The notes beneath the pieces were generated by a model that did no database searches, had not been told where the DNA came from, and saw nothing but the letters and a program-made list of their open reading frames with translations. Shown piece by piece: positions 1 through 36,891 of a stretch of 64,000 nucleotides of DNA. Location of the stretch: assembly GCF_003991155.1 (NCBI RefSeq), contig NZ_CP031293.1, one strand, 5' to 3'. Made by a program: the position numbers and the translations under genes. The stretch's first letter is position 1; each line of letters starts with the position of its first letter. Source of the DNA: Escherichia coli (GTDB lineage: Bacteria; Pseudomonadota; Gammaproteobacteria; Enterobacterales; Enterobacteriaceae).

Positions 1-249
1 TATTTTTAAAATTATGCCTAAGACTGAATAACTCGTTATATTTAAAACCGTTAGTAATAATTTTACGCCTTACTTTTTCCAGTTTCATTTATTATCACTC
101 CTTGAGATCTTTAAATTATTATAGTGTATTTTTTAAGTGAGTCAATGCATCAGAGAAAGATCATCAGAAGAACTCTTTTTGTACTAAATAATTCGCATTT
201 TATGTTTAAAAATTGAGATATTCCTCATTGTCTGAAGCTGTTTTTTATT

Positions 250-1450
250 GCTTATACATGATCAAATACTCCTTACATAATTAAGGAGAACAAAATGGAA
301 CTTAAAAAATTGATGGAACATATTTCTATTATTCCCGATTACAGACAAGTCTGGAAAGTGGAACATAAATTGTCTGATATTCTACTGCTGACTATTTGTG
401 CCGTTATTTCGGGTGCAGAAGGTTGGGAAGATATAGAGGATTTTGGGGAAACACATCTCGATTTTTTAAAACAATACGGTGATTTTGAAAATGGTATTCC
501 TGTTCACGATACCATTGCCAGAGTTGTATCCTGTATCAGTCCTGCAAAATTTCACGAGTGCTTTATTAACTGGATGCGTGACTGCCATTCTTCAGATGAT
601 AAAGACGTCATCGTAATTGATGGAAAAACACTCTGGCATTATTATGACAAGAGTCGCCGCAAGGGAGCGATTCATGTCATTAGTGCGTTCTCAACAATGC
701 ACAGTCTGGTCATCGGACAGATCAAGACGGATGAGAAATCCAATGAGATTACAGCTATCCCAGAACTTCTTAACATGCTGGATATTAAAGGAAAAATCAT
801 CACAACTGATGCGATGGGTTGCCAGAAAGATATTGCAGAGAAGATACAAAACAGGGAGGTGATTATTTATTCGCTGTAAAAGGAAACCAGGGGCGGCTAA
901 ATAAAGCCTTCGAGGAAAAATTTCCGCTGAAAGAATTAAATAATCCAGAGCATGACAGTTACGCAATGAGTGAAAAGAGTCACGGCAGAGAAGAAATCCG
1001 TCTTCACATTGTTTGCGATGTCCCTGATGAACTTATTGATTTCACGTTTGAATGGAAAGGTCTGAAGAAATTATGCGTGGCAGTCTCCTTTCGGTCAATA
1101 ATAGCAGAACAAAAGAAAGAGCCAGAAATGACGGTCAGATATTATATCAGTTCTGCTGATTTAACCGCAGAGAAGTTCGCCACAGCAATCCGAAACCACT
1201 GGCACGTGGAGAATAAGCTGCACTGGCGTCTGGACGTGGTAATGAATGAAGACGACTGCAAAATAAGAAGAGGAAACGCCGCAGAATTATTTTCAGGGAT
1301 ACGGCACATCGCTATTAATATTTTAACGAATGATAAGGTATTCAAGGCAGGGTTAAGACGTAAGATGCGAAAAGCTGCCATGGACAGAAACTATCTCGCG
1401 TCAGTCCTTGCGGGGAGCGGGCTTTCGTAATCTTTCCCTGGAGTGAGTAT
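250..1450 (+). mobile_element. ISAs1-family (H-repeat) insertion element; boundaries approximate
   Basis: Contains the H-repeat-associated transposase reading frame (295-1430); flanks are AT-rich non-coding DNA on the left and a 5'-truncated gene on the right. Terminal inverted repeats not mapped. Confidence 0.55.
295..1430 (+). pseudogene. ISAs1-family / H-repeat-associated transposase, frameshifted
   Basis: ORFs 295-879 ([18 protein letters not shown]...) and 819-1430 ([23 protein letters not shown]...) together match the ~378-aa H-repeat protein family (YhhI/YdcC type). The frame breaks in the A-run at 848-851 (caaaac), consistent with a 1-bp deletion. Confidence 0.8.
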
Positions 1451-1603
1451 TTTGATTTACTGAAATATCTTATTAGAAACGGATATATTGATGAAACATA
1501 TAATGACTATATAACATATTTCTATGAAAACAGTTTAAACCGGAGTGACAAAGCTTTTTTAAGAAGTATTTCCGATAAAAAAGGGAAAGATTTTTCTTAT
1601 GCT

Positions 1604-3448
1604 TTGAATAACCCCTCATTAATAGCAAGTCGATTACAACTTTATGATTATAGCCAGCAAGAAACGTTAAATTTTGATTTGTTGGATCACCTCTTGGATT
1701 CATTGACTCAACATACAACACAACTTAAGACATTTATATCTCAACTGAAAAAAGATAAAAATCTCCGATTTATTAAAGAGTACATGGACACTGAACGTAA
1801 TATTTCAAGGTTAATCCCTTTATTAAATCAGCAGTGGAGTGATTTTTTTCAATTGATGTTGAATGAAAAATTATATACACAACAACAAATAAAATCATAT
1901 TCCCTGGACAGTCTTTATTTTTCAAATCAAGACACTTTATTAAAAGTCAACCATAATGGCTGTCTATCACAGTATATATCTGAACATAAAACATATCTAA
2001 ATATAGAACAGCCTCAAATTCAAATGCTAATAGATAAGTTTAAATGTTTAGATATTTTATTTAAGAATTTATCATATAACAACTCAGAAGCATCTTTATT
2101 TTCAGCCGTATATAAAGAGTCACTTTATGAACTTAATTATCATAATTTAAAAGAGCTTATTTGCTATGAATACAAATGTGCAGACGAAGATAAAATCAAA
2201 CACCAAAACTTCACCATATTACTAAGCAATGCATCAACATATCTTTATAAAAAGATAGATAAAAATATCGAAAAATATATAGCTATAGTTCTCGAAAATT
2301 GTGAGAATAGTATAGCTGATGCTGAAAATGCAGTTGTTGTAATTATTAATAAATCAGGAATTGATGAGGAAATAAAAAAATCATACATAGCAAAACTCAA
2401 TAATAGATTGAGTGACTTAAGTAAAATAGATGAATCAAATATGTGGTCTTACTTATTAGACCAACGAAAAATAGAGTATACTGCTGAGAATATTATTTTT
2501 TATTTTTCTCAGCATAGTGAATTAGATGAAACAATAATTAAATTTATAGATAGCGAAAAATCTATTACACTAGACTATTATAGTGGGTTTACAGACGATA
2601 TCAAAGAGAGATTTTTCGACAAGGTCATCATTTGTGAACAAATTAGCGATAACAAATACTTCGAGATATTATCTTCATTAGACTATTGCTATGAATCATT
2701 TGATATATCCGGTTTGCAGGATGCGAAGATAAAAGTACTTATCGACACTAATATAATTCGAATGTCCATTCTGAATCTAGAGTTTCTAAGAACTACATAT
2801 CCTAATAACCTTATGCATTATATAAATAAAAATATAATCGACTATATTAAACTACAGACAGGTGAATCTGCTGTTAGTGACACAAATGAAATTTTGAACG
2901 TCTTAGAATTAGATATTGATGATTCACAAAAAGAAAAGCTATCAATGATAGTAGATACTCCAATCTCTATTCAAAATAATAAATACTCAACTCTCTTTAA
3001 GAAACACATCCTCACAAATAAATTAGATATAAATGACATCCCTTATCTCATAGAAAATTATGGCACATTAGTAGCACTTCAATCGACAATTCTAATCATT
3101 TTAAGTGGTCACGTCAATGAGGTAAAAGATCATGCTGATAAATTATCGATTAACTTGTTAGAGGTCTTAATAAAGGATGCTCATTTTATCCATGATGATA
3201 ATGTAGAATTATTTGTAAAGCAGATAACTAACATGAATAAAATACAAATCAAGAAGTTTCTAAAACTGATTAATTCTTCTGAGTTAACTATCTTATTAGA
3301 TAAAAAATTGGCATCGATAAAAATAAGCTCGTCTAATGAAAAAATACTTAAGAGTTTCATAACAAATGGATTAATAAAATCCTACAGCCAAAGTACTGAA
3401 GATCCTGAATCATACATAATAGATTTCCCTGAGGAGTTTCTTGATTAA
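1604..3448 (+). CDS. Hypothetical protein, very AT-rich (N/K/I/L-rich); reading frame is open upstream to 1358, so likely 5'-truncated by the IS
   Basis: 614-aa ORF starting at a TTG. The same frame stays open back through the 3' end of the ISAs1 element to a stop at 1355-1357. No recognisable motifs. Confidence 0.5.
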   Translation: MNNPSLIASRLQLYDYSQQETLNFDLLDHLLDSLTQHTTQLKTFISQLKKDKNLRFIKEYMDTERNISRLIPLLNQQWSDFFQLMLNEKLYTQQQIKSYSLDSLYFSNQDTLLKVNHNGCLSQYISEHKTYLNIEQPQIQMLIDKFKCLDILFKNLSYNNSEASLFSAVYKESLYELNYHNLKELICYEYKCADEDKIKHQNFTILLSNASTYLYKKIDKNIEKYIAIVLENCENSIADAENAVVVIINKSGIDEEIKKSYIAKLNNRLSDLSKIDESNMWSYLLDQRKIEYTAENIIFYFSQHSELDETIIKFIDSEKSITLDYYSGFTDDIKERFFDKVIICEQISDNKYFEILSSLDYCYESFDISGLQDAKIKVLIDTNIIRMSILNLEFLRTTYPNNLMHYINKNIIDYIKLQTGESAVSDTNEILNVLELDIDDSQKEKLSMIVDTPISIQNNKYSTLFKKHILTNKLDINDIPYLIENYGTLVALQSTILIILSGHVNEVKDHADKLSINLLEVLIKDAHFIHDDNVELFVKQITNMNKIQIKKFLKLINSSELTILLDKKLASIKISSSNEKILKSFITNGLIKSYSQSTEDPESYIIDFPEEFLD

Positions 3449-3492
3449 TGCTAATCTTTAACAAGATGTCATAAATACACTTCAACAAAGAA

Positions 3493-3528
3493 AAAACCAC
3501 CAGCATCTCAATTGCTGGTGGTTTTTCT
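3493..3528 (+). terminator. Rho-independent terminator downstream of the AT-rich gene
   Basis: aaaaaaccaccagcatctcaattgctggtggtttttc: GC stem ccaccagca/tgctggtgg followed by a T-run. Confidence 0.6.
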
Positions 3529-3577
3529 TCTCCTAATTATCAGGAATCACCTCACGTAGCGGTCGGATGCAGTAGAA

Positions 3578-3677
3578 AAATTGGTGGTCATTCTGGTGGT
3601 CTTGACAATCTCGATTTTTTGTTTTAGCTTACCAATCAGCCAGTTAATGGCTACGGCGATCCCAGTCAGAGGAGCCC
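3578..3677 (+). repeat. att-like repeat copy A (about 70 bp of island arm plus the last ~17 nt of tRNA-Asn)
   Basis: ttggtggtcattctggtggtcttgacaatctcgattttttgttttagcttaccaatcagccagttaatggctacggcgatcccagtcagaggagcc; the 3' end matches the tRNA-Asn acceptor/T-arm end (cagtcagaggagcc). Confidence 0.75.
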
Positions 3678-3683
3678 AATTTC

Positions 3684-3710
3684 TGAAAAACCCGCTTTTA
3701 TAGCGGGCTT
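3684..3710 (-). terminator. Hairpin terminator downstream of cbl
   Basis: cccgcttttatagcggg stem with flanking A/T runs, immediately 3' of the cbl stop on the minus strand. Confidence 0.5.
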
Positions 3711-3714
3711 TTCG

Positions 3715-4665
3715 CTATATCTGATAATCAATTTCCTCTTCACTGTTTTCCATCACCTGGCGCTTGATATCCTCAACTGACAGTCCTGCATTACAAAGTT
3801 CCAGAAAGCGCCAGACATAGTTACGTTGAAGTTGCCCTCGCTTCAGTCCCAACCAGACAGTATTAGCATCGAAAAGATGCCTCGTATCCAGACGGATTAA
3901 ATTCTTTTCCTCTTGTTCACCACTGGATTGTTCGGCAACTAATCCGATCCCCAGCCCAAGAGCAACATAGGTTTTAATGACATCAGAATCCTGCGCACTT
4001 AATACAATATCTGCCAGCAAACCTTTGCGGGCAAATGCGTCATCAATACGTGAGCGCCCCGTAATCCCCTGTCGGTAAGTAATTAACGGCCACTTCGCTA
4101 TTGATTCCAGCGTCAACGGTGTAATTTGCGTCAAGGGATGATCGAGTGGAACAAGCAAACTATGGTGCCAACGAAACCACGGGAAGGCGACGAGCTGCGG
4201 GTCATTACTCAAACGCTCGCTGGCGATACCAATATCAGCTTCGCCATTTTGCAACAACGTCGCAATTTCCTGTGGTGTACCCTGGATTAGCTCCAGCCGA
4301 ACCTCCGGGAAAAGTTCGCGAAAAGCTTTAATGACCTCAGGCAAGCTATAACGTGCCTGAGTATGCGTCGTTGCAATAGTGAGAACGCCAGACGTATCGT
4401 TGGTAAACAGGTCTGCAAGCCGACGAACATTACTGGCTTCATTCAGAATACGTTCTGCAATGACCAGTAATGCTTTGCCCGGTTCAGTCATGCCCAGCAG
4501 TCGCTTACCTCGTCGAACAAATATTTCGATGCCAAGTTCATCCTCCAGTTCCCGAATATGACGGCTAACGCCTGACTGTGAGGTAAAAAGCATATTCGCA
4601 ACCTCTGTCAGGTTGTAATCCTGACGTGCAGCCTCGCGGATTATCTTTAGTTGTTGGAAATTCAC
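3715..4665 (-). CDS. cbl: LysR-family regulator Cbl (CysB-like)
   Basis: 316-aa ORF MNFQQLKIIREAARQDYNLTEVANMLFTSQSGVSRHIRELEDELGIEIFVRRGKR...; N-terminal HTH plus LysR substrate-binding region; sits next to nac as in E. coli. Confidence 0.85.
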   Translation of the reverse strand: MNFQQLKIIREAARQDYNLTEVANMLFTSQSGVSRHIRELEDELGIEIFVRRGKRLLGMTEPGKALLVIAERILNEASNVRRLADLFTNDTSGVLTIATTHTQARYSLPEVIKAFRELFPEVRLELIQGTPQEIATLLQNGEADIGIASERLSNDPQLVAFPWFRWHHSLLVPLDHPLTQITPLTLESIAKWPLITYRQGITGRSRIDDAFARKGLLADIVLSAQDSDVIKTYVALGLGIGLVAEQSSGEQEEKNLIRLDTRHLFDANTVWLGLKRGQLQRNYVWRFLELCNAGLSVEDIKRQVMENSEEEIDYQI

Positions 4666-6008: not shown

Positions 6009-6084
6009 TCCTCTGTAGTTCAGTCGGTAGAACGGCGGACTGTTAATCCGTATGTCACTGGTTCGAGTCCAGTCAGAGGAGCCA
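6009..6084 (+). tRNA. tRNA-Asn (GTT anticodon)
   Basis: tcctctgtagttcagtcggtagaacggcggactgttaatccgtatgtcactggttcgagtccagtcagaggagcca; 76 nt, anticodon loop ctGTTaa. By recalled K-12 layout this is asnT-like by its downstream context and asnV-like by its upstream context. Confidence 0.95.
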
Positions 6085-6226: not shown

Positions 6227-7513
6227 GTGAGCAAACGGAGCCCCCACGCTATGGCATTAACAGACACCGCTATTCGCAAGACTAAACCCTCTGACAAACC
6301 CTTCAAAATGACGGACAGTTCTGGACTGTACCTGTTGATCAAACCTAACGGCTCAAAACTCTGGTATATGAAGTACCGCATCGACGGCAAAGAGAAGAAA
6401 CTGGCCTTTGGCCCCTACCCGGAGATCTCCCTGTTGCAGGCTCGCCGCCTGCGCGAAACAGCACGCAATAACATTCATGCAGGCGTCGATCCGGCTGCGG
6501 TGAAGCAAACCGAGAAACAGAAGAGGAAAAACGGGCAGACGTTCAGCCAGATCGCCATCAACTGGCATAGCGAGCATAAACGCTGGTCTGAGCATTACGC
6601 GAAAACGGTTATGCGCAGGCTGGAAATGTACGTTTTCCCGGATATCGGGGATCGCCTTATCGAGGAGATCGAAACGGAGGATTTGTTATTCACGTTGCGC
6701 AAGGTAGAGAGTAAAGGCTTTCTGGAAATCACCGCGCGGCTGAAAAACTACGTCACCGATATCATGCACTACGCGATGAAAAAGAAACTGCTCAAAGCGA
6801 ACCCGGCGCTGTATCTGGACGGTGAGTTTGCCGCGCCAGAAACCAGTCACTACCCGGCCCTGTCGCTGGACAAATTGCCTGAGCTTTTAACCCGGACGGA
6901 TAGCTACTGCGGCAGGCTGCTGACAAAATACGCGCTTAAGCTGTCGCTGATTTTTTTTGTGCGCTCCAGCGAACTACGCTTTGCGCGCTGGAGTGAGATC
7001 GACTGGCAGCAGAAGTTATGGATAATCCCGGAAGAGCGCGAACAGATCGAAAACGTGCGCTTCTCTTACCGGGGGTCGAAAATGAAAATCCAGCACATTG
7101 TGCCGCTGTCGGATCAGGCGATTGCGATACTGAAACAGATCGAGGCCCTCTCCGGGCATCTGGCCTTTATTTTTCCCGGCGAATACGACCAGGACAAGTG
7201 CATGAGCGACAACACCGTCAACAAGGCGCTGCGCGTGATGGGTTACGACACCAAAAAGGATATCTGCGGGCATGGCTTCCGGGCAATGGCCTGTAGTGCG
7301 CTGAGCGAATCGGGATTATGGAGCAAAGAAGCCATTGAAAAGCAGATGAGCCACCAGGAAAGAAACAGCGTCCGTGCTGCCTATATTCACAAGGCTGAAT
7401 ATCTGGAGGAACGGATCGAGATGATGCAGTGGTGGTCAGATTATCTTGATGCAAACAGTGACGGGTATGTCTCGGCTTACCAGTATGCCCGCCGCCTAAA
7501 ACAGGCGTCGTAA
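6227..7513 (+). CDS. P4-type tyrosine integrase, island-associated
   Basis: 428-aa ORF directly 3' of tRNA-Asn. C-terminal ...HGFRAMACSALSESGLWSKEAIEKQMSHQERNSVRAAYIHKAEYLEERI... carries the catalytic H-x-x-R ... Y region. Possible alternative start at MALTDTAIRK (6251). Confidence 0.85.
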   Translation: MSKRSPHAMALTDTAIRKTKPSDKPFKMTDSSGLYLLIKPNGSKLWYMKYRIDGKEKKLAFGPYPEISLLQARRLRETARNNIHAGVDPAAVKQTEKQKRKNGQTFSQIAINWHSEHKRWSEHYAKTVMRRLEMYVFPDIGDRLIEEIETEDLLFTLRKVESKGFLEITARLKNYVTDIMHYAMKKKLLKANPALYLDGEFAAPETSHYPALSLDKLPELLTRTDSYCGRLLTKYALKLSLIFFVRSSELRFARWSEIDWQQKLWIIPEEREQIENVRFSYRGSKMKIQHIVPLSDQAIAILKQIEALSGHLAFIFPGEYDQDKCMSDNTVNKALRVMGYDTKKDICGHGFRAMACSALSESGLWSKEAIEKQMSHQERNSVRAAYIHKAEYLEERIEMMQWWSDYLDANSDGYVSAYQYARRLKQAS

Positions 7514-8388: not shown

Positions 8389-8682
8389 TTACATGGAAGC
8401 AACATACTCCATTAAATTATCTAATAAAAAATCAACCTTACTTATACCTTCATTTACATTATCGGCATAGATAAGTTCTACGAGCTTCATCCAACTTAAA
8501 TTGGAACGTACATTGTATTGTAAAAGGAGCCACTCTCTAAATCCCTCTAACATTTTACCGTCAAAGGAAAAATCCATCCCTAGTATAAAAGCCACAGTGT
8601 TTTCATAGTTATTTTCAAGTAGATACATATCGATATGCTTCTTAAAAAAAACAATTTTTTTTAGGAGGATATTTTTATTCAT
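8389..8682 (-). CDS. Putative immunity protein for the orphan Rhs C-terminal toxin
   Basis: 97-aa AT-rich ORF immediately 3' of the orphan Rhs toxin fragment (2-nt gap). Confidence 0.5.
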   Translation of the reverse strand: MNKNILLKKIVFFKKHIDMYLLENNYENTVAFILGMDFSFDGKMLEGFREWLLLQYNVRSNLSWMKLVELIYADNVNEGISKVDFLLDNLMEYVASM

Positions 8683-8684
8683 AA

Positions 8685-9299
8685 TTAAAATCCAAAATTG
8701 ATTGCATCAGGATATTGCCATAACTCTTTATATTCTTGTAATGGTAAACCGTCTGAGCCAGTAAAGGCATCATAAACCCGACCATCTTTTACTACAACGT
8801 CGTGATATGCCCAACCGGGATTCGTGCCTCTGTATTTACCTAATGAAGGAGCTCCGAAATCAGGTCTAATTCTTGCAATATCACCACCGATTTTCTTTTG
8901 TACCCACAATGCAAAATCTTCACAACCATTCCAGTTCTCAGAATTTTTAATATCCGCAGCCTTCCATACACAATCAGCGTTAAGGCCTAATGGATCAATC
9001 CAATTTAACGGATCTTTGACGTAACTGTATGGATTAATACCTCCCAACACCCCGGTTGGATCTGCCGAAATATACTGCGCAGTATCAGGATCATAGTACC
9101 GGAACCGGTTATAGTACAGTCCTGATTCGGCATCTTCATACTGCCCCGGAAAACGCAGGCGGCAGTCAGGTGCATCATCCCTGTTCCTGCCTTCTTCCCG
9201 GCCCCAGAGCTGTTGTTTTCCCCGCCAGACAATGGTGCCGCCCTCGGTCAGCAGTTCCTGGACACGGCCGACCGTATCCGTCACCGCGTAATGCAACAA
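8685..9299 (-). CDS. Orphan Rhs C-terminal fragment with a distinct toxin tip
   Basis: 204 aa: conserved end of the Rhs core (GRVQELLTE...RLRFPGQYED.ESGLYYNRFRYYDPDTAQYISADPTGVLGGINPYSYVKDPLNWIDPLGL) followed by a divergent ~95-aa C-terminus. About 300 bp (9000-9300) nearly identical to 10140-10440 in the main Rhs gene. Confidence 0.8.
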   Translation of the reverse strand: MLHYAVTDTVGRVQELLTEGGTIVWRGKQQLWGREEGRNRDDAPDCRLRFPGQYEDAESGLYYNRFRYYDPDTAQYISADPTGVLGGINPYSYVKDPLNWIDPLGLNADCVWKAADIKNSENWNGCEDFALWVQKKIGGDIARIRPDFGAPSLGKYRGTNPGWAYHDVVVKDGRVYDAFTGSDGLPLQEYKELWQYPDAINFGF

Positions 9300-9442
9300 G
9301 CCTTTCTCATAACGCGCCAGCGGTGTAAAACTTCCCGGTTCGTATATCCAGCGGATGGCGTTTTCATCATCTGGCTTGCCGTCCTGGCTGACCGGAATTT
9401 CTTGGTTAGATGACCGTCAGTTAAATGGATATTATCATTCCA

Positions 9443-9784
9443 TTAAAAATCGGAATGATCCATATATTCTATATGCTCATCAGAAAGTCCATCTGGATAT
9501 AACTCTCTTGGATAATCACTATCTAAAATTGCTAGGAAGTTATTTATAGTATTTTCCAATGCCTCATCTACTGTTTTTCCCCAGCCAATAGCACCTTCGG
9601 GACAATCATCAAATTTCCGTTTAATCATTACATTTGTAATCCCCATGTAACTCCCATCCTGAGACTCTCGTATTTTTATTTTTACTTTTGCGCTAGGGAT
9701 AACACCAAACATCCAAATTACAAACTCGGCTTCAACTTTCTCTACTTTAGATACACTGCGTATTTTCATTTGATGCCAGCCCAT
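9443..9784 (-). CDS. Putative immunity protein for the main Rhs toxin
   Basis: Small ORF 10 nt 3' of the Rhs stop; likely start at MGWHQMKIRS (9784). No motif-based support. Confidence 0.5.
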   Translation of the reverse strand: MGWHQMKIRSVSKVEKVEAEFVIWMFGVIPSAKVKIKIRESQDGSYMGITNVMIKRKFDDCPEGAIGWGKTVDEALENTINNFLAILDSDYPRELYPDGLSDEHIEYMDHSDF

Positions 9785-9794
9785 ATCTTTTCCT

Positions 9795-12700
9795 CTATAA
9801 ACGACCAAAAGAGACAATTTCCCCTGTATCTACCGCAACATCAATATATCTTCCGTTCTTTCTATATCTCCACACATTTTCAGTATAACCAGAAACTTTG
9901 GTTGGTTTTATTCTTCTCAAGTTCTCAGAAAAAACCTTAGCTTTATTTAGATATTGCTCTACCGTTTCTGCACCAACTTCACGACCATGTTTTCTGAAGT
10001 GCTCCAGTAATGACTCTGCCGGAGTATCCCAACTTCCTTTACTCCATAGTTTTTTACAATTTACTTCTTGCAGGAATGCAAATAATGCCGATAAACCTAA
10101 AGGGTCAATATAACTAAATGGGTTCTGTACATATGAATATGGATTTAATCCCCCAAGTAACCCAATGGGATCTGCCGAAATATACTGCGCCGTATCAGGA
10201 TCATAGTACCTGAACCGGTTATAGTACAGTCCTGATTCCGTATCTTCGTACTGCCCCGGAAAACGCAGGCGGCAGTCAGGCGCATCATCCTTGTTTCTGC
10301 CTTCTTCCCGGCCCCAAAGTTGCTGTTTTCCCCGCCAGACAATCGTGCCGTCTTCGGTCAGCAACTCCTGGACACGACCGACCGTATCCGTCACCGCGTA
10401 ATGCAGCAAGCCTTTCTCATAACGTGCCAGCGGTGTAAAACTTCCCGGTTCATATATCCAGCGAATGGCATTTTCATATTCTGGTTTGCCATCAGTACCA
10501 ACAGGAATTTCTTCGGTTAACTGATCGCCATTCCAGTGGAAATCCATTCCGGACTTATCACGGTTGGTACACCGTTTGCTGATGCGCCTGCCAAACGGGT
10601 CGTATTTATACTCCCAGCGTTCCCCCTCCGGCGTTTCAAGCCCGGTAAGCTGACTTCTGGCATCCCAGCGATAGCGCCATTCGAGCGGACGATAGCCGCC
10701 TTTATCGACCAGTTTCTCCACCAGGCGACCATTAGCATCGTACGTCCAGGTAATATTGTGCTCATTCACCACCCGGACAAATTTTCCCTCTTCCGGCTTT
10801 CCTGTGTCCGGGTTGATGCGGTGTGTCTGATGCCGCCAGCCTTTGTGCTCTCTGGAAACAACTCTTCCATGCCGCAACTGCTGGTGTGTCTCGCTTTCCA
10901 GCACCTCATTTACCCATGTCTGGCGGCGGGCAATATTCAGGTTTTTGTCATAAGTGAACAGTTCCTCACACAGCGGAAACTCCCGGGAATCGCCCGTCCA
11001 GGTGGCATGGCTTACCTGGTCGTTAACCGTCATATTGTTGAAGGCTGATCCCCGCAGCGAGTCTGATATTACCGTCAGGTTGTACGCCTTGTCATACAGC
11101 CACTGGCGCTCCAGGCTTTTGTTCCGTTCGTACGGCCCGGCCTGGTGGTCCCCGGCATTCTGCTTCGCTGGCATCCCTGTGCGCGTGTATGCCAGCGTCT
11201 GGTAAAACCCGGCCTCGCTCCGCCTGGACGTTTCCAGGCCGCGCAGGTCGTGCTCAAATGTCAGCGGGGCATGGTCCGCTATCTGCCAGGATGCCAGATG
11301 CCCCATCAGGTTTCGGGTAAAGCGTTCTGTGATACCTGCTGTGGTGCGCTGTGTGACCGTATCCAGGTCAGGGTCGTAACGGTATTCTGTGCGCCTGCCG
11401 TTCAGCGTTTCGGCAACAATCTGGTTTGCATCGTTATATTCAAATGTAACGGTGGCATCGTCATTCTTCGCTTCCACCAGACGACGCTGCGTGTCGTAAC
11501 GAAATGTGGTGACACTCAGAGTTCGGTCACTGTTGCCCTGTGTGACTTCCTCGTCCGTCACCTGGTCATTCACGTTGTAGCGGCGGTTAAGGTGAGTGCC
11601 GTCCGGGAAGCTGGTGCGAATACAACGCCCGACGGCATCGTAGGTGTAGTTCAGCGTGCGTCCGGTGAAGTCTGTTTCTGCTACAAGCTGCCCGGCTTTA
11701 TCATATTTAAGACGGTAGCGCTCGCCTTCGGCGTTGGTAATTTCGGTCAGGCGGGTCAGTTTATCGTAGCGACACGCCAGCCGCTCGCCGTCAGGACGCA
11801 CCAGAGCCGTGAGCAGATCGAATGCACCGTATTCGTAACGGGTGGTTTTGCCCTCGCCATCGGTAAAGCTTTCCGGTAGCTTTTCGCTGTTCTGGCGCAT
11901 CAGTTCCCGCACGCCGTCCGGGCGCTGGATTTCTTCCACGCAGCCCTGTGGCCCGGCGTGGATTTTGCTGTGACGAAACTGCGTGGTGAAGCCAAGTGGG
12001 TCTTTCACACTTAACAGTCGGCCCAGCATATCCTGTTCGGTCTGCGTGATGCCGCCGTCTGGCGCAACAGTCTCGCGCACCTGATGCAGGGCGTCATGAC
12101 TCCAGCACCAGGTGGCCCCGCCCGGCAGAATCCGTGCAAGCAAATCACCCTGTTCACTGTAGCTGAACTGCTGTTTCCGGCCCTGAGGGTCGATCAGGCT
12201 GATTATGCTGCCCCGATCATCATAGACCCATTGCCACGCCTGATTATCAGTTGTCGACAGCCGGGTTAACTGACCGGTATCATTATACTCGTAGAACAGG
12301 CCATAGCCGCCCGGCAGGGCAACCTGGATAACCTCACCTTCCCGGTTATAGCGGTACGCCGTGGTACGCCCCAGCGCATCGGTGCGTGACTGAAGCCGGG
12401 CATTATTCCAGACGGTAATTTCTTCCCGCCCCAGCGGATCGATACAGCGGGTGACCAGGCCGTCCTCGTTATACCAGTAACGGGTTTCGCCCCCTTCTGC
12501 ATCCAGGTAGGTGGTGCATTTTTCATCATCGTTATAGATAAAGCGGTCATCGAAGTAGCCTTCCGTTGACAGTGTGCTGACAGCGCGCCCCTGCGGATCA
12601 TAGCGGATATCCACACAGGTTTTGTCCGTATCCCGCCAGCGGGTCATAAAGCCTTCTGATGTGTACTCATGCCATAAATGCGAGAACTGGAAGGTATCGC

Positions 12701-13883
12701 ATTCTGCCATAAAACCATTGTCATCATACTGGCAGGTCACAAGACGCTGACGCTGCGGCGTTGCCAGGTCAATGCTCATCAGCTGAGCCTGTTGCCAGGC
12801 AAGGGCGAGCATATAGCCATCGCTGTGACGGATTTCTGTCAGCAGACCATCAGTGCGGATAAAATCAATCCGGTTGCCATAATTATCGAAGACAGCGGAC
12901 AACCGCCAGACGCCATTGCCTGCCGGGGAAAAGAGCTGTGTCTGCTGCGAACGGCGATCGAAAACGCTCACGCCATCGCGCAGGCTTCCCGTCAGCCGGT
13001 AGTACGCCTGGCGTGAGTTCACTGCACCGCGAAAGATACCGTCCTGCGGCAGGCGGTAATACAGTACAACGCCTTCACTGTCGGTAAAATGCAGCCGGTT
13101 ACCCTGTATCGTCAGCGACGCTGACCACTCATCGGTCCATTTCGGGCCGAAAATCCCGGTCCCCCTGGCCTGTGAGCGGTAAAAACGCGAGAGCGTCAGC
13201 GGCAGGGAACCCGGCAGCGAAAGCACGCTGAAATGCTGGAGAAAATCGCCGGTGCCAATATCCACAGGCTCACCGGGTTTGGTGCACAACTGAGCACCAA
13301 CACATTTACTCTGATCACCAGTTCCCTCGGTTTCACCTTTAATATTTGCGCCATCCTGGCCTTCGGGTATGACATCATCCGCCAACTTTTCTGCGTCACT
13401 GACAACATCGTCTGCTTTGTTTACCTTCAGCAGATCGGCGGTGAATTTCCCCGCCGCTGCTTCTTCTCGTGCCAGTTTACTGGCAGTCCGCATCGCTCTA
13501 AGACCCACGAACCCGCCTCGGGCCAGACCATATCCTCCCAGCGCCAGCGAGCCATGGTCATAAATCATGCCGCCAATTTCCTGGTTCCTGTTGCTCATTT
13601 CCAGACGGTACATGTCCAGATTGAAATCTCCCGCATGCTCCCGGAGATCTCCGCCCATGTTGTACATATCCTCGCCAATATCATCCATGCCCATCGCAGA
13701 AAGCATGGCGCCGTTCATCTGCATTTCTCCGGCATACTGCATGGTGGCCCCCTGGCCTATCATCGTCGCCATATCCGGGAACTGGTTCCAGAATGCTTTG
13801 GCAGCACCAATAGCCAAATCAAGCTGGACTGCCGAAGCTTCAATTTTCGCCCGACTTTCATCCATCTGGATCATCAACATCAT
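9795..13883 (-). CDS. Rhs-family YD-repeat toxin (core plus variable C-terminal toxin domain); frame open upstream to the IS boundary at 13994
   Basis: 1362-aa ORF with many YD repeats (YRYDxxGRL, YxYDxxGxL), the core-terminating ...RYYDPDTAQYISADPIGLLGGLNPYSYVQNPFSYIDPLGL motif, then a ~95-aa unrelated tip. N-terminus is not the canonical E. coli Rhs MSGKPAARQGD start and is Gly/Ala/Met-rich. Confidence 0.9.
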   Translation of the reverse strand: MMLMIQMDESRAKIEASAVQLDLAIGAAKAFWNQFPDMATMIGQGATMQYAGEMQMNGAMLSAMGMDDIGEDMYNMGGDLREHAGDFNLDMYRLEMSNRNQEIGGMIYDHGSLALGGYGLARGGFVGLRAMRTASKLAREEAAAGKFTADLLKVNKADDVVSDAEKLADDVIPEGQDGANIKGETEGTGDQSKCVGAQLCTKPGEPVDIGTGDFLQHFSVLSLPGSLPLTLSRFYRSQARGTGIFGPKWTDEWSASLTIQGNRLHFTDSEGVVLYYRLPQDGIFRGAVNSRQAYYRLTGSLRDGVSVFDRRSQQTQLFSPAGNGVWRLSAVFDNYGNRIDFIRTDGLLTEIRHSDGYMLALAWQQAQLMSIDLATPQRQRLVTCQYDDNGFMAECDTFQFSHLWHEYTSEGFMTRWRDTDKTCVDIRYDPQGRAVSTLSTEGYFDDRFIYNDDEKCTTYLDAEGGETRYWYNEDGLVTRCIDPLGREEITVWNNARLQSRTDALGRTTAYRYNREGEVIQVALPGGYGLFYEYNDTGQLTRLSTTDNQAWQWVYDDRGSIISLIDPQGRKQQFSYSEQGDLLARILPGGATWCWSHDALHQVRETVAPDGGITQTEQDMLGRLLSVKDPLGFTTQFRHSKIHAGPQGCVEEIQRPDGVRELMRQNSEKLPESFTDGEGKTTRYEYGAFDLLTALVRPDGERLACRYDKLTRLTEITNAEGERYRLKYDKAGQLVAETDFTGRTLNYTYDAVGRCIRTSFPDGTHLNRRYNVNDQVTDEEVTQGNSDRTLSVTTFRYDTQRRLVEAKNDDATVTFEYNDANQIVAETLNGRRTEYRYDPDLDTVTQRTTAGITERFTRNLMGHLASWQIADHAPLTFEHDLRGLETSRRSEAGFYQTLAYTRTGMPAKQNAGDHQAGPYERNKSLERQWLYDKAYNLTVISDSLRGSAFNNMTVNDQVSHATWTGDSREFPLCEELFTYDKNLNIARRQTWVNEVLESETHQQLRHGRVVSREHKGWRHQTHRINPDTGKPEEGKFVRVVNEHNITWTYDANGRLVEKLVDKGGYRPLEWRYRWDARSQLTGLETPEGERWEYKYDPFGRRISKRCTNRDKSGMDFHWNGDQLTEEIPVGTDGKPEYENAIRWIYEPGSFTPLARYEKGLLHYAVTDTVGRVQELLTEDGTIVWRGKQQLWGREEGRNKDDAPDCRLRFPGQYEDTESGLYYNRFRYYDPDTAQYISADPIGLLGGLNPYSYVQNPFSYIDPLGLSALFAFLQEVNCKKLWSKGSWDTPAESLLEHFRKHGREVGAETVEQYLNKAKVFSENLRRIKPTKVSGYTENVWRYRKNGRYIDVAVDTGEIVSFGRL

Positions 13884-13992
13884 GTCCCAGATACTTTGCT
13901 CTTCTTTTGTTTCTGGCTCTGGCGCAGGGTCAGCTTCGCTGGCGGAAATAGCGGCTTCAGGGGGCTGACCGATAATTAAACCCGTCGTATTA

Positions 13993-15244
<1,252 letters not shown>

Positions 15245-15252
15245 CCACTACA

Positions 15253-15453
15253 CATAGCAAGGGGAAAAGGTGGATGGGAGCCAACTAAGTTACAAAATTT
15301 TGATCCTGAATTTGGCAGAAAACTACAAGCAATAAATAACGCGTTAAGGAATGGACGGATAGAATTTGCTCATGCACAGGTTTTTTTACGCAATGATGGC
15401 TCTGTTAATGCTGCAGTAGGCATTGGTAGCGGAATACAGTGGAATACCTGGTA
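15253..15453 (+). pseudogene. C-terminal remnant of an unidentified gene truncated by IS3 copy 1
   Basis: Frame open from the IS boundary: ...KLQNFDPEFGRKLQAINNALRNGRIEFAHAQVFLRNDGSVNAAVGIGSGIQWNTW*, with no start codon. Confidence 0.45.
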
Positions 15454-15463
15454 ATAATAGTAT

Positions 15464-16426
15464 GTGTATATAACGAATAAAGGAGTCCATTTTATGGCAG
15501 CAAGCAAAACAAAAAACAGACTGGAAAAAATGCTTCCTCGCGTTTATAGCTGGGCACAGAGCGGCAGCCAATCAGTAACCGCCCCTGAGTTTAACTATAT
15601 GGAACAATATATTAATGGTCAATCTGAACTTTTCATGGCATTAATTCATTTATATGGACTTGGCATGAGTGAAGCTGCATTAAGCTTACTGGAAGCCAAA
15701 CAGTCTATGGCTTCTTCTGTTATCCATATGAGTTATGGATTCTCTCGAATGCTTCATTCTGATGGCATTAATATATTGAGTTTAAAAGAAAGCAAGGCAA
15801 CTATTACTTCAGGCTTGGATTTCGTCACACATAGTATGCTTGGAGCAATTGCGCTGGGTATGCCCGCTCTGACGAAAAAATTTCACCAGATTGTTTTTAC
15901 TGCTCTTGAGAAAGGGTATGGCATTGTAAATGCGCATGAAGATCCTGGCCCAGAAACTTTACGCTATGCTGCTATGGGACTTTCCATCATTAATGACTGG
16001 CTACAGATCCCCCTGGATTTAGATAAGCTGGGACTGCCACGCGATCCGGCCTGGGGGCTTCTGGTCAAACACTGGAATAACCCTGATCCCGTTAAATTAC
16101 AATCGGTTCTGTATGATGCCTGTGATATCCATATAGAACGTATCGCGTTAACAGAACGTGAAGTTTATACCGGTAACTTTGAATTTGGCTCTCCGTTTGA
16201 AGCCGTTCACCCAACAGAGATTCTGGCGGTATTGCGCCTGAGAGACATGCTGAATCTGCCCAATCCGACATTAGACCATCCGCTGATGAACACACCTTAT
16301 GCCCAAATCACCACCACTCCGGGCCAGGTCACTCAGCCGGACAGTCTGCTAGAAACCTTTCTGGCTAAGGCCCGTGAACGGGATCCAGAGGTCATGGCCG
16401 AATGGGATCGGGTTCAGGTGGATTAA
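15464..16426 (+). CDS. Hypothetical protein encoded upstream of a PAAR gene (possible T6SS effector-associated protein)
   Basis: 320-aa ORF; no recognisable catalytic motif; 27 nt upstream of the PAAR gene. Confidence 0.5.
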   Translation: MYITNKGVHFMAASKTKNRLEKMLPRVYSWAQSGSQSVTAPEFNYMEQYINGQSELFMALIHLYGLGMSEAALSLLEAKQSMASSVIHMSYGFSRMLHSDGINILSLKESKATITSGLDFVTHSMLGAIALGMPALTKKFHQIVFTALEKGYGIVNAHEDPGPETLRYAAMGLSIINDWLQIPLDLDKLGLPRDPAWGLLVKHWNNPDPVKLQSVLYDACDIHIERIALTEREVYTGNFEFGSPFEAVHPTEILAVLRLRDMLNLPNPTLDHPLMNTPYAQITTTPGQVTQPDSLLETFLAKARERDPEVMAEWDRVQVD

Positions 16427-16453
16427 TTTGGTACTGGATACAAAGGATAGATA

Positions 16454-16717
16454 ATGAAACCATTAATAACGCTTGGGGATAAAACATCTCATGGTGGTGT
16501 TGTAATTAGTGCCAGTGCAAATTTTTTGCATGAGGGACAGCCTGTCGCCTGTGATGGTGACCAGGTAACTTGTCCGATAGAAGGCCATGGGCCAGCAAAA
16601 ATCATAGCATCTGGACAGGGGTTTTCTATAAATGGGAAACAGGCTGCACATGATGGCGATAAAACAACCTGTGGGGCAACGCTGATAGCCAGTCATTTTA
16701 TTGTGCGTCATAAGTAA
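16454..16717 (+). CDS. PAAR-domain protein (type VI secretion spike tip)
   Basis: 87 aa: MKPLITLGDKTSHGGVVISASANFLHEGQPVACDGDQVTCPIEGHGPAKIIASGQGFSINGKQAAHDGDKTTCGATLIAS; three PAAR-like repeats (GD..HGG, CDGD...CP, HDGD..TCG). Confidence 0.8.
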   Translation: MKPLITLGDKTSHGGVVISASANFLHEGQPVACDGDQVTCPIEGHGPAKIIASGQGFSINGKQAAHDGDKTTCGATLIASHFIVRHK

Positions 16718-16841
16718 CTAATACCAAAATAACTCTATGATTAAAAAGGCTGATATATATGCTGGAAGTAGACAGACTACCGGAAACAGTACGACGGTGA
16801 CAGGGTGAACCAAAGGGTTAGGCGCATTTTAAAAAGGTGGT

Positions 16842-16928
16842 CATTCTGGTGGTCTTGACAAACTCGATTTTTTGTTTTAGCTTATCAATCAGCCTGTTAA
16901 AGGCTAAGGCGATCCCAGTCAGAGGAGC
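16842..16928 (+). repeat. att-like repeat copy B (island right end next to yeeJ)
   Basis: aaaaaggtggtcattctggtggtcttgacaaactcgattttttgttttagcttatcaatcagcctgttaaaggctaaggcgatcccagtcagaggagc; sits where asnT lies in recalled K-12 order (about 250 bp upstream of yeeJ). Confidence 0.75.
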
Positions 16929-17168
16929 AAAATTCTAAAAATTCGCTTTTTTAGCGCAATATCACTGACCTTAGTTGAGCATTGCTTTTTAATGGATAGC
17001 GGGTTTTTGACATCTTAAGCGCCCTCGACCTTTATGGTTGAGGGCGTTTTGCTATGAACGCCATCACCATTTTCCCCTCGATTATAAAACTTGAGTAATT
17101 CAGTAGTCTCCCCTCTTGCAACTCACACCCAAAACTGCTTAACGAAAAGTTATTAATTTTCAATCATA

Positions 17169-25223
<8,055 letters not shown>

Positions 25224-31496: not shown

Positions 31497-32414
31497 ATGA
31501 AGTCCAGATTTGGACCAAATGGGGTGCATTTATTCGACCGAAATACAGGTCTGAACGTCCTCCTGGAGGAGTTACGCCCAAAGGAATCTGTTTGGTCCAT
31601 TTCTCCACGCCAGGTCTCGATTGCACTTACCAATCTTTGTGACCTTCGCTGCGCACATTGTTTTGCGCCCAAGCATAAGGCATTGCTACATACTGACCAA
31701 GTGCTTACTTGGTTAAAAGAACTGGATACTGAAGGATGCCTCGGTATCGGATTTGGTGGTGGAGAACCAACACTGCATCCTGATTTCGTCGAAATATGTA
31801 AACGGGCTGCTGGGGAAACTCATCTTGCAGTCACATTTACGACTCATGGTCACCGTCTGACCCAGCCATTGGTTAAAAAACTCAAAGGCTCGATCCACTT
31901 TGCGCGCATTAGCGTTGACGGGATAGGTCATACCTACGAAGAACAACGTGGAAGGCAGTTTTCAAGTTTACTCAGAGGCATTGAGTCGATCGCGAAATTG
32001 TCGTCTTTTGGGATCAATGTCGTGATAAACGAGCGTACGATTTTTGAGCTTGACGCAGTGGCTGAGCTGGCGCAACAGTTTGGTGCTAGTGAATTGCTGT
32101 TGTTGCCTCAGCAAGCAACTAATGCAGTCGCAAGTATGGACGAATTGGTCGGCCGAGAGCTTCAAAACTGGGTCTCTAGCTATAGAGGAAAGGTTCGACT
32201 TGCAGTAAGTGAGGTGGGAGCGTCAGGGCTCCCCATATGTGACCCTCTTCCTAATGAAACAGGCCTTCAAGCCTACGCGCATATAGACGCTTCCGGGATA
32301 TTGCGCACGAGTTCTTATTCAACCACAGGTATGGATATTGAAGAAACTGGTGTTATGTCCGCGCTTAAACGGCTTAGAAATACCTTAGAGATTAAACAAG
32401 GGACACAATCATGA
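31497..32414 (+). CDS. Radical SAM enzyme (single 4Fe-4S cluster type, no SPASM extension)
   Basis: 305-aa ORF; CDLRCAHCF (CxxxCxxC, nt 31635-31658), GFGGGEPTLHP (GGEP SAM-binding motif), ARISVDG; stop overlaps the next start (ATGA at 32411-32414). Confidence 0.8.
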   Translation: MKSRFGPNGVHLFDRNTGLNVLLEELRPKESVWSISPRQVSIALTNLCDLRCAHCFAPKHKALLHTDQVLTWLKELDTEGCLGIGFGGGEPTLHPDFVEICKRAAGETHLAVTFTTHGHRLTQPLVKKLKGSIHFARISVDGIGHTYEEQRGRQFSSLLRGIESIAKLSSFGINVVINERTIFELDAVAELAQQFGASELLLLPQQATNAVASMDELVGRELQNWVSSYRGKVRLAVSEVGASGLPICDPLPNETGLQAYAHIDASGILRTSSYSTTGMDIEETGVMSALKRLRNTLEIKQGTQS

Positions 32415-32818
32415 AAATTTGGAACGGATACGGATCTGAGCATTCGATGAACTTAGTTCTCATCGGAAAATTCAAGCAAGAGCAAGATGCAGTGAAGGTC
32501 GAGAAGGATATTAAAACGCTCAGTACTCAGGCTGAGAAAGATGAATGTTACTCGATCCCTTTTGATGAGCCAGAGAATCAACGGTTTTCATATGAAATGC
32601 TCTCATTACTATGCAGCCTAAAACTCCACACTTTAGGACCAACCGATCTTGGTCAATTGGTGTCAGATCATCATCTAGATCGCGAAGGCGATAGAATAAC
32701 AATAACTACTGATGAGGCAGAGGTATCCGCGTTCGTGAAGCTGTTTGTCGAGGCTGGAGCAAAGGTCGAGATTTTCTCAGCGCATGACTATCCGTCCGAT
32801 TCCAGCGATGCCAGTTGA
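32411..32818 (+). CDS. Hypothetical 135-aa protein, translationally coupled between the radical SAM and NTPase genes
   Basis: Start overlaps the radical SAM stop; its own stop TGA overlaps the TTG at 32815. No recognisable motifs. Confidence 0.6.
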   Translation: MKIWNGYGSEHSMNLVLIGKFKQEQDAVKVEKDIKTLSTQAEKDECYSIPFDEPENQRFSYEMLSLLCSLKLHTLGPTDLGQLVSDHHLDREGDRITITTDEAEVSAFVKLFVEAGAKVEIFSAHDYPSDSSDAS

Positions 32819-35800: not shown

Positions 35801-36891
35801 TGCTGATGCTTGGTTATGACCCTGAGCAGTTTGAAGCTGTTGATCGGCAAATGTACTCCGGTTCTCGTATGGGAGATGACAAGCACAAAATCGATCGATA
35901 TGGCAAAAAGTACGGCTGGATAGCTTACTTCGAGATGTGGGGGATACGATACGCGCAGGGCCTCCTTTCCGAAGAACGCAGTGCTCGCCCATCAGATGCT
36001 GATATCGATCCAACGTTTCCGCAAAAAGTAGAGAGTATTAGTTTGTCACTCCCAGTCTTATTTAACGATCCGTCTGTGGATGATGGTGACTGGATCGTGG
36101 GAGGCCCGCTACCTGACTACCGTAGCATCCTTGAGATTACGGAGGTTGATGGTCTGACGGGGCCATGGATCCTACTTGACGGTTTTGTTGAGCAAAATGC
36201 TACCTCGGATGACCGACAGATTTTCACTTTCCTGCGAGGAGTATTCGTAGATAGCCAAGAAGTTGACAATCTATGTAGGTTGTTCATTGATCTTGAATAT
36301 CCTGGCAATAGCGCCATCCCTGATGCTCCTGGCTACTATTACACCTATGCGGGTGAGATGCCTTTCCCGACTATTCCGGGGCTGCTAGTCGCTAATGAAC
36401 AAGAGGATGATAGCGATGAAAATTTGGTGTTCGCAGAAAGATGGTCAGGCAATGGCGTTGCGGTAGATATCACAGTGCAGGACTACAACTGGGAGAGCTA
36501 CCATAGCGTGGAGAACCAAAGCAGCGGTGCGAGCCTGCCCTCAAAGCAACTTTGTGAGGCTTTGAATCTCAGATACTGTGCAAACAAATGGGATTTGCAT
36601 GATGCTGCAGGTGTAGCGTCACTTTACCGCAAAATTGACGAAAATGGTTCGGACGTCAGTGGCTCTGTCAGCTATCTACGTCGTGATCTACTTGACCGCT
36701 ATTTGATGCAATCCGGTAAGGTATTGGTATGGCTTATGTGGGGAGAGCGTGGTTTTCATTACCGGTCCAACAAGACACGCAATTTGCACAGGTATTACGT
36801 GAATCACCAACATATTCACAAGCGTATTCATATCCATCAGATAGCTTCGAGTACTAGTAACCCAAATATTGCGGATGGAGTCGCTATATGA
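32815..36891 (+). CDS. NACHT-like STAND NTPase with an N-terminal Mrr-like nuclease-fold domain and a long C-terminal region (NLR/Avs-like)
   Basis: 1358-aa ORF (TTG at 32815 or ATG at 32833). N-terminus FENLCRALVRRHYG...EPCDLGAPPGWIGWQCKWY resembles an Mrr-cat type D...QxK nuclease. Walker A VLAAAGEGKSE (nt 33823-33849, aa ~340); Walker B IPIVIDGLNEAED (aa ~410) then LLVVTLR. About 850 aa of C-terminus without enzymatic motifs. Confidence 0.8.
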   Translation: MTEDALMPEVNWKVFNELPGAADVNFENLCRALVRRHYGRFGRFKQLANQPGVEFHLELTEPCDLGAPPGWIGWQCKWYELVNGQDLGASRRNKIIEGIEKTRKHVPGVTNWKLWTHHTLTKGDQEWFFALEQDRFPELKLELLTATDIEDLLVGPGALLRETYFGELVLTPELIAEQYKLAVAPFKNRYQPDVHVAVGAEENIFRHLCSQNAWESLEELSNALKKNHTSIASVTEQLKTELRAEVELLLARVIGLTEFIDGLHAALGKGDFNSVYQALVSNPRQPVRYDRLLSKLRGARFDGAPLTANLVADIHAVSSVLRSLEQSISARAVAVLAAAGEGKSELAVKVTQPEGAFLGGILLLGKNLHSGQGLDDLVSAFKISGRPAESFDRLIEAVDAAGQRAGKRIPIVIDGLNEAEDPRNWKDELSRVDELLKNFPYVLLVVTLRNEFAQMCLPEGFPQVEHNGFQEDPKTAFDKYFEYYKIDATDADLPVELLQHPLTLRIFCEVANSPRQHIVGVEALPRSLASLFEAHFNKVAARVAELSPTMHRIYQDDVQDALLTIAGLLWDNNARSVDFQATRMAVRDMGWDDSIIRALESEGILVRTISPEGRQGVAFAYDLMAGHMMARNLLMKPELVQWLQSDEGNAKFKSHGPDSHTFAYDVLRALVDLYPQHSGRRQLWQDLSDDILVMNALLLTTQSDPRYIGRATVERFAQAMQESKRFAQLAFERLRSTRAALAHPFDMSFLHDVLMAMSNTQRDLFWSEWIRQKSEQVKDDLKFLSTRWKSGHLDERELRRVRWVMWTLTTTSRALRDMATKALYEFAIRRPEEFFRLATETIVVSDPYVPERVFAAAYGAVLTTWSDIDAVELHDALPRFAREIYQTMFAPGATAPTWHALHQQYCLGIIAIARMVDPNCFSEDEAVYLLPPFSHLPNVFESIQPYDPEMIGRAESAAIQMDFGNYTIGGLIPDRANYDDSNPEYQQVLQAIVSRMLMLGYDPEQFEAVDRQMYSGSRMGDDKHKIDRYGKKYGWIAYFEMWGIRYAQGLLSEERSARPSDADIDPTFPQKVESISLSLPVLFNDPSVDDGDWIVGGPLPDYRSILEITEVDGLTGPWILLDGFVEQNATSDDRQIFTFLRGVFVDSQEVDNLCRLFIDLEYPGNSAIPDAPGYYYTYAGEMPFPTIPGLLVANEQEDDSDENLVFAERWSGNGVAVDITVQDYNWESYHSVENQSSGASLPSKQLCEALNLRYCANKWDLHDAAGVASLYRKIDENGSDVSGSVSYLRRDLLDRYLMQSGKVLVWLMWGERGFHYRSNKTRNLHRYYVNHQHIHKRIHIHQIASSTSNPNIADGVAI

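Follow-up and report, generated by a model that had tools for sequence, protein, structure and literature searches.

A PAAR gene and a probable immunity gene beside an IS3 element of Escherichia coli as the likely 3' end of a lost type VI secretion cargo module

The stretch analysed here, hereafter called the window, comprises 64,000 nucleotides of contig NZ_CP031293.1 from the Escherichia coli assembly GCF_003991155.1. At 15253-16717, on the plus strand and directly after an insertion sequence (IS) of the IS3 family, it carries a truncated gene followed by a pair of genes that encode a 310-amino-acid protein and a standalone PAAR protein of 87 amino acids. An earlier note on this DNA had pointed out that the IS separates the pair from an Rhs gene running in the opposite direction, and had proposed either that the IS broke up a PAAR-adaptor-Rhs module or that the pair belongs to a different, now missing, effector. 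The results favour the second proposal. We estimate at roughly 78% the probability that 15253-16717 is what remains, at the 3' end, of a mobile type VI secretion system (T6SS) cargo module that lost its front beside IS3, so that a toxin stub is now followed by a probable orphan immunity gene and by the terminal PAAR gene. The neighbouring Rhs toxin was never part of one unit with the pair, which is an ordinary relic of ordinary genome decay.

All the elements described in the earlier note are present, as borne out by a PF05488 match for the PAAR protein, by homologues of the protein encoded upstream of it and by a Salmonella toxin matching the IS3-truncated remnant, with the Rhs gene on the opposite strand. 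Two of the gene limits had to be adjusted. The remnant (15253-15454, +) consists of 66 codons and a stop; native sequence begins at 15253, as had been stated, and the frame is open from the IS end to the stop at 15452-15454, one base beyond the end given before. The upstream open reading frame (ORF), in its maximal form, extends from a GTG at 15464 to 16426 and does encode 320 residues, but the likely start is the ATG at 15494, since it is preceded by AAGGAG at 15480-15485, which yields a protein of 310 amino acids (15494-16426, +; RefSeq WP_197706531.1). This ORF is a real gene, because 143 homologues were found at E <= 1e-3 (best 1e-164), all of them unnamed and none with a Pfam domain. The domain search that had been advised identified only the PAAR gene (16454-16717, +), the product of which matches Pfam PF05488 PAAR_motif over residues 7-79 (E 5e-24), and placed neither the 310-amino-acid protein nor the remnant in a family. 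Against the NCBIfam model T6SS_PAAR_dom NF033420 the 87-residue protein scores 32.1 bits (E 9.5e-08), short of the 124 bits set as the curated cut-off; although a PAAR protein, it lies outside this curated equivalog.

The origin of the three genes was traced through relatives. Genomic context was examined for ten homologues of the 310-amino-acid protein, and seven intact loci were compared, from E. coli GCA_033744675.1, Salmonella, Serratia fonticola, Pseudomonas protegens, P. fontis, P. aeruginosa and Burkholderia. The order of the intact module is VgrG, a short DUF4123 protein, a protein of ~280 residues, a toxin of ~620-640 residues, one to three copies of the 310-amino-acid (~305-residue) family and PAAR. 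Remnant, 310-amino-acid gene and PAAR correspond to the last three genes of this conserved module, which bears out the idea of a different, missing effector. The Salmonella enterica locus, at the edge of a T6SS cluster, encodes VgrG, DUF4123 (194 residues), a 282-residue protein, a 623-residue protein, a member of the 310-amino-acid family and an 87-residue PAAR, and the same six-gene order occurs in P. protegens, P. aeruginosa and Burkholderia. P. fontis has the genes from DUF4123 to PAAR in the same order, with no vgrG called in a 2-kb uncalled stretch 5' of DUF4123, and S. fonticola keeps the module order with PAAR absent. Six of the seven loci have both vgrG and DUF4123 5' of the toxin gene (only DUF4123 is called in P. 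fontis); the window has neither. The remnant itself aligns with the C-terminal 60 residues (564-623) of the 623-residue protein of Salmonella at 72% identity (E 1e-29).

A family member directly follows the toxin gene in all seven loci, and PAAR lies 3' of the family gene or genes in six of them, S. fonticola being the exception; closing the module is a conserved position for the small PAAR. The PAAR of the window shares 92% identity with its counterpart at the end of the Salmonella module and 90% with a PAAR within the T6SS cluster of E. coli strain 48, which is located after a VasX-immunity pair and before vgrG, while the terminal PAAR of the Pseudomonas-type modules shares only ~32% identity with it. 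The VasX of strain 48 and its immunity protein were compared with the remnant and the 310-amino-acid protein as possible kin and found to be unrelated.

The closest view of what was lost is given by the E. coli draft GCA_033744675.1. One of its contigs carries an integrase-like/HTH/ASH block, VgrG, DUF4123, a 270-residue protein and toxin codons 1-494; a second one opens at the next toxin codon and continues with three tandem paralogues of the 310-amino-acid gene, PAAR and yeeJ. The two contigs (L016 and L005) abut exactly, giving a toxin gene of 618 codons. The remnant of the window is identical to the end of this rebuilt gene, and the draft carries the toxin gene on past the point where the window turns to IS sequence. 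The native organisation at the window's own site, the yeeJ junction, is known from this draft, because the whole module there shares a PAAR-to-yeeJ junction that is 99% identical to that of the window. Missing beside the IS is everything 5' of toxin codon 553, that is, at least 5.1 kb with vgrG, both adaptor genes and 552 toxin codons. Neither the 5' part of the toxin gene nor the intact module was found in the 5426 complete E. coli genomes searched, 26 of which carry the pair. IS3 adjoins the pair in each of these 26 carriers, so the same divergent arrangement without any IS, which the earlier note had named as the sign of a native organisation, was not encountered among them.

The toxins of the intact loci form a single family (33-68% identity); clustering of 1.84 billion proteins at 50% yields 28 representatives of it, distributed over Enterobacterales, Pseudomonas, Burkholderia and Achromobacter. 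In the family alignment G434-E435-E436 is near-invariant, and D472 and E520-x-K522 are invariant, in the context GEE...G(I/L)D(I/M)LV...(I/V)EVK, which is a PD-(D/E)xK pattern; the predicted fold gave weak matches to Hjc, YraN and VRR-NUC nucleases. We thus infer that the C-terminal domain is PD-(D/E)xK nuclease-like. The pattern is close to the PoNe motif, Kx3GE..GIDx2Y..Yx3ExK (PMC6688995), the K and Y positions of which are not conserved in the toxin family. Residues ~210-340 contain hydrophobic helices and are poorly modelled; they may be a membrane-insertion region shielded by the adaptors. A scan of the toxin for a MIX motif found none, and searches of Pfam, NCBIfam, PADLOC and PDB sequences gave no family match for the remnant, the Salmonella toxin or the ~280-residue protein. 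The remnant should be non-functional, because the predicted catalytic EE...D...ExK residues lie upstream of the part that was retained.

For the 310-amino-acid protein several lines of evidence suggest a probable role as the orphan immunity protein to the lost toxin: its position after the toxin gene, the occurrence of diverged tandem copies, independent orphans, the absence of a signal peptide or membrane segment, and structural matches. The protein is cytoplasmic and all-helical, with no signal peptide and no membrane or hydrophobic segment. The three tandem paralogues of E. coli GCA_033744675.1 are 81-86% identical, and tandem copies are also found in Burkholderia (two) and P. fontis (three). 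The single copy of the window equals copy 1 of the E. coli array with a 3' end nearer copies 2 and 3, which suggests unequal recombination. A Serratia-like scaffold has an orphan family gene beside an 81-residue stub of the toxin nuclease core, and Pectobacterium has a family gene in an island without any toxin. The predicted fold matches best PA2201 (PDB 2FEF), a two-domain all-alpha protein, and the matches retrieved by Foldseek against AFDB outside the protein's own family are named DUF1911, PoNi C-terminal and Immunity protein 49. Imm-PA2201 (DUF1910+DUF1911, type structure 2FEF) was described as the partner of Tox-REase-1 toxins (PMC3482391) and later shown experimentally to be PoNi, the immunity protein to PoNe DNases (PMC6688995).

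Several observations weigh against this interpretation. None of 41 members of the 310-amino-acid family matches any Pfam entry, DUF1910, DUF1911 and Imm49 (PF15575) included, and the window protein has no Pfam match at E <= 10 nor any match in NCBIfam, PADLOC or PDB sequences; a profile of the family searched against PDB sequences did not retrieve 2FEF. The protein would therefore be PoNi-like in predicted fold and position, with membership of PoNi or Imm49 lacking support at the sequence level. No promoter-like site was found upstream of the 310-amino-acid gene on the plus strand, which leaves its expression unproven. The pair is 99.9-100% identical across the 26 carrier genomes, and for this reason its conservation is uninformative on selection. 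Finally, the order of IS insertion, deletion and recombination is only partly reconstructable; the left IS junction of one carrier, strain 980-2, differs from that of the window.

The same data bear on a reading in which the 310-amino-acid protein would be a spike or PAAR accessory factor, a chaperone or co-effector kept together with PAAR as a functional unit. Its gene is immediately 5' of PAAR in six of the seven intact loci as well as in the window, it falls in no sequence family, and new accessory proteins supporting PAAR are still being described (PMC13373197). We nevertheless regard this reading as improbable: family genes occur without PAAR in S. fonticola and in the Serratia-like orphan locus, which argues against an obligate immunity-PAAR partnership, two to three diverged copies precede a single PAAR, a pattern usual in immunity arrays but not among chaperones, the predicted fold matches an immunity family, and the module already has adaptors in DUF4123 and the ~280-residue protein. 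The 310-amino-acid protein is not an adaptor either: it occupies the immunity position, and its predicted fold resembles that of a known immunity family.

If the pair is the remainder of a cargo module, the ancestral system could have worked as follows. DUF4123 (TecT-like) and the ~280-residue protein (in the co-TecT position) would load the toxin onto the VgrG/PAAR spike, and the toxin, with its hydrophobic helices and C-terminal PD-(D/E)xK nuclease-like domain, would be fired into rival cells, while the cytoplasmic immunity protein would bind and block the nuclease in sister cells. The surviving immunity gene might still protect against neighbours armed with this toxin, and the surviving PAAR might be used as a spike tip by a resident T6SS; any expression of the pair would probably come from read-through out of the IS, which has the same direction. 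One may go further and propose that the toxin and the 310-amino-acid protein represent a distinct, unnamed T6SS family (a membrane-inserting region joined to a PoNe-like nuclease, a split DUF4123 adaptor and a terminal PAAR) and that the pair is a selected two-gene unit offering protection and a spare spike tip, a proposal that we consider rather unlikely.

The resident T6SS invoked here was sought in the carriers, as the earlier note had recommended, with joined queries that combined sequence unique to the pair with a probe for tssC or vgrG, the second match in each genome being counted. For both probes a second matching place exists in 21 of the 26 carriers, CREC-544 included, and none was detected by this search in the other five, 980-2 included. 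Most carriers thus probably have one T6SS locus with one vgrG, as detected indirectly through tssC-like and vgrG-like probe matches.

Across the IS from the pair, the Rhs gene (9795-13994, -) has an RHS core and YD repeats and is truncated at its 5' end by the IS. One could suppose that the standalone PAAR and the protein first described as having 320 residues were the PAAR and adaptor of this Rhs, separated and inverted by the IS insertion: the pair and the Rhs gene are neighbours separated by nothing but the IS, and PAAR-adaptor-Rhs modules exist in general. We find this hardly credible, however. Relatives that lack the IS, with 93-95% DNA identity to this Rhs, have a DUF2169 gene 5' of an Rhs with its own Tox-PAAR-like domain and contain neither the standalone PAAR nor the 310-amino-acid gene; the family of the pair accompanies a different toxin in all seven intact loci and never stands beside Rhs; and the stub of that other toxin directly precedes the pair. 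The first proposal of the earlier note, that the IS split a PAAR-adaptor-Rhs module, is contradicted by these relatives.

The Rhs is instead a separate, unrelated DUF2169/PAAR-like-Rhs module, the natural partner of which is DUF2169 and not the 87-residue PAAR. In the IS-free island of strain ESBL 15 the order is integrase, immunity, PAAR-like-Rhs (1536 residues), DUF2169 and a block of ash, HTH, HigA and integrase-like genes. RefSeq annotates the window Rhs as a complete protein of 1362 residues (9795-13883), 13883 being the first remaining ATG, yet its frame is open right to the IS junction, which lies 356 bp inside the gene. The Rhs of 980-2, with the IS 62 bp upstream of its start, has 1517 residues, 155 codons more than that of the window, and its residues 16-123 match the Tox-PAAR-like domain PF13665 (E 3e-32). 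The window Rhs, annotated as complete, is therefore beheaded by the IS, without its N-terminal Tox-PAAR-like domain, and probably undeliverable. DUF2169 proteins (TvpA) are reported to stabilise DUF4150/PAAR-like domains (PMC13373197). The IS-free Rhs relatives resemble the Class I Tvp systems of that study in having DUF2169 immediately 5' of an Rhs with an N-terminal Tox-PAAR-like domain, whereas the Rhs site of the window has neither the DUF2169 gene nor the PAAR-like domain. A TvpA-type fragment comprising the N-terminal 111 codons of a DUF2169 gene is found 29 kb away (43017-43352, -; annotated in RefSeq as DUF2169 domain-containing), cut by a second IS3 copy beside it; it is 77% identical in DNA to the full-length DUF2169 gene of ESBL 15.

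Copy 1 of IS3 (13995-15252, +; 1258 bp, ends TGTAGTGG...CCACTACA) encodes what RefSeq annotates as an IS3 family transposase with programmed frameshift, in the same direction as the pair, and lies between the 5'-truncated Rhs and the toxin remnant. Copy 2 (41764-43021, +) is in direct orientation and differs at one of 1258 bases; it is flanked by an Rhs C-terminal fragment (~41282-41763, -) and the DUF2169 fragment, in the second tRNA-Asn island. The 3 bp on either side read ATG and CAT at copy 1, ACC and ATG at copy 2, with no target duplication at either. The sequences flanking each copy are not contiguous in any relative, those of copy 1 being mutually unrelated. The lack of target duplications and the non-contiguous flanks indicate that each junction results from deletion or recombination rather than from a clean insertion. 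The pair is missing from at least seven related complete genomes in which the left flank of copy 1 is matched (2016C-3878, AR Bank #0349, PK12, SX4, SX48, HB42 and CUVET16-465). In 2016C-3878, which was inspected, one IS3 is all that stands between the left flank of copy 1 and the right flank of copy 2, and 15253-41763 is deleted, the genes removed being the pair, yeeJ, shiA, amn and yeeN. The simplest account is that copy 2 is the recombination partner of copy 1 and that recombination between the direct copies led to the layout of 2016C-3878; the two copies thereby explain a recurrent 26.5-kb deletion of yeeJ, shiA, amn and yeeN in related strains.

The reverse course of events was also considered, namely that a unit made of IS3, 15253-41763 and IS3 was inserted into an IS3-bearing Rhs-DUF2169 island, so that the layout of 2016C-3878 would be ancestral and the pair would have arrived with yeeJ. 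It would account for the ATG that borders the IS both in the left flank of copy 1 and in the right flank of copy 2, for the single IS3 shared by the two flanks in 2016C-3878, and for the resemblance of the joined flanks to the contiguous Rhs-DUF2169-ash-HTH-HigA island of ESBL 15. Such a translocation is nonetheless very improbable. The PAAR-to-yeeJ junction is common to an independent E. coli with the whole module, and yeeJ, shiA, amn and yeeN lie between tRNA-Asn genes, which we take to be their usual place in E. coli K-12. The DUF2169 block is only 77-79% identical to that of ESBL 15, against an identity of 93-95% in the Rhs gene, one in 64 comparisons would give a 3-bp match by chance, and deletion between direct IS copies is a simpler route to the 2016C-3878 layout. 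A former contiguity of the two flanks was likewise set aside as the principal explanation: ~1.2 kb of sequence from DUF2169 and Rhs is absent between them, and the left junction of 980-2 is a different one.

Recovery of the intact modules allowed a comparison with known systems. The TseT operon of P. aeruginosa (PA3904-PA3908) encodes PAAR4, TecT, co-TecT, TseT and TsiT (PMC10586262), with TecT/co-TecT forming a split DUF4123 adaptor of the nuclease toxin TseT (PMC11582642). As described in these studies (PMC10586262, PMC11582642), it shares with the present module a small PAAR, a short DUF4123, a separate second adaptor, a putative nuclease toxin of ~600 residues and immunity directly after it; the comparison is by described gene content and order. 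The toxin here has no Pfam match. PAAR comes first in the TseT operon and last in the present module, which opens with its own vgrG, and the window keeps only the immunity and PAAR genes. With the PoNe/PoNi pair of Vibrio parahaemolyticus (V12_14465/V12_14460) the resemblance lies in the position of the 310-amino-acid family gene, directly downstream of the toxin in 7/7 intact loci (the nuclease nature of this toxin being inferred). The differences are the lack of any DUF1910, DUF1911 or Imm49 match among the 41 family members and, in the toxin, the absence of the conserved K and Y motif positions and a different N-terminal part with hydrophobic helices. The VgrG6-Tap6-Ptx2-Pti2 and VgrG14-Tap14-RhsP2 modules of P. 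aeruginosa PA14 are alike in combining vgrG, a DUF4123 adaptor, a cargo toxin and immunity, the Tap adaptor tethering the toxin to the VgrG C-terminus (PMC11582642). They differ from the present module, in which the adaptor is in two genes, the toxin belongs to another family and a PAAR gene closes the unit. Orphan immunity genes left after effector loss are known from the auxiliary clusters of Vibrio cholerae, the acquired defence islands of Bacteroidales and Rhs orphan arrays. The window resembles these cases by its intact immunity gene, the deleted or stub toxin, a copy number varying by recombination and the location in a mobile island; it departs from them in that PAAR is retained and the loss is IS3-associated.

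These findings leave T6SS biology as understood unchanged. What is mildly new is a toxin-immunity family that is small, has no name in the databases searched, is tied to known families by fold and motif only, and is directly testable. For annotation, two genes regarded as hypothetical or isolated gain a context, one as a probable orphan immunity gene and the other as the PAAR that closes a T6SS cargo island.

The island that hosts the pair is seated at the tRNA-Asn gene 6009-6084, with nac on one side and yeeJ on the other. Its left end comprises an integrase, a RelE/ParE toxin-antitoxin pair and an orphan C-terminal piece of Rhs followed by small genes; the right part continues with Rhs (-), IS3 (+), the toxin remnant, the 310-amino-acid gene, PAAR and an attR-like repeat, after which comes yeeJ. 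This repeat (16915-16928, +), read from the sequence, consists of 14 nt of the tRNA-Asn 3' end (CCAGTCAGAGGAGC) and marks the right end of the island ~200 bp past the PAAR gene, which is its last gene. The region 15245-17168 has 100% identity to E. coli CREC-544 and to 23 further complete genomes, and 99.9% to another two. Sequence specific to these 26 carriers stops near 16827, beyond which ~3000 genomes match. The integrase-like/HTH/ASH block of the GCA_033744675.1 island (129-3262 of contig L016) is 75-87% identical to 43413-46818 of the window and stands divergently upstream of the cargo operon; the cargo is VgrG-toxin in one island type and DUF2169-Rhs in the other. The presence of this block in both types suggests a single family of islands whose T6SS cargo can be exchanged.

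The window contains three tRNA-Asn genes (6009-6084, 49266-49341 and 51090-51165), two of them with P4-type integrases alongside, one intact (6227-7513) and one a pseudogene in RefSeq (47995-49206). The cbl-nac genes are upstream of yeeJ, unlike in K-12, where they presumably lie between yeeO and ldtA; the shifted position and the several tRNA-Asn copies suggest recombination among these copies. Upstream of cbl, positions 1-4000 have a low GC content (27-37%), and the annotation of the counterpart in CREC-544 lists an ISAs1 pseudogene, a DUF4225 protein and a hypothetical protein of 554 residues; this stretch is probably another island. Arrays of Rhs C-terminal fragments, each with a small gene, occur in both tRNA-Asn islands (8389-9817, - and 38265-41763, -) and are probable orphan toxin-tip/immunity cassettes, and a 300-nt Rhs core repeat is common to 9051, 10161 and 39769. 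The yeeJ-like inverse autotransporter (17169-25223, +) has 2684 residues and internal 609-bp tandem repeats at 20260-21777. The second island also holds, at 31497-36891 (+), a radical-SAM protein partly matching prokaryotic viperin models (E 5e-20), a DUF6375 protein and a 1358-residue Avs2-type antiviral STAND protein (PADLOC E 8e-116), the gene of which is split by IS100 in CREC-544 and unsplit in the window.

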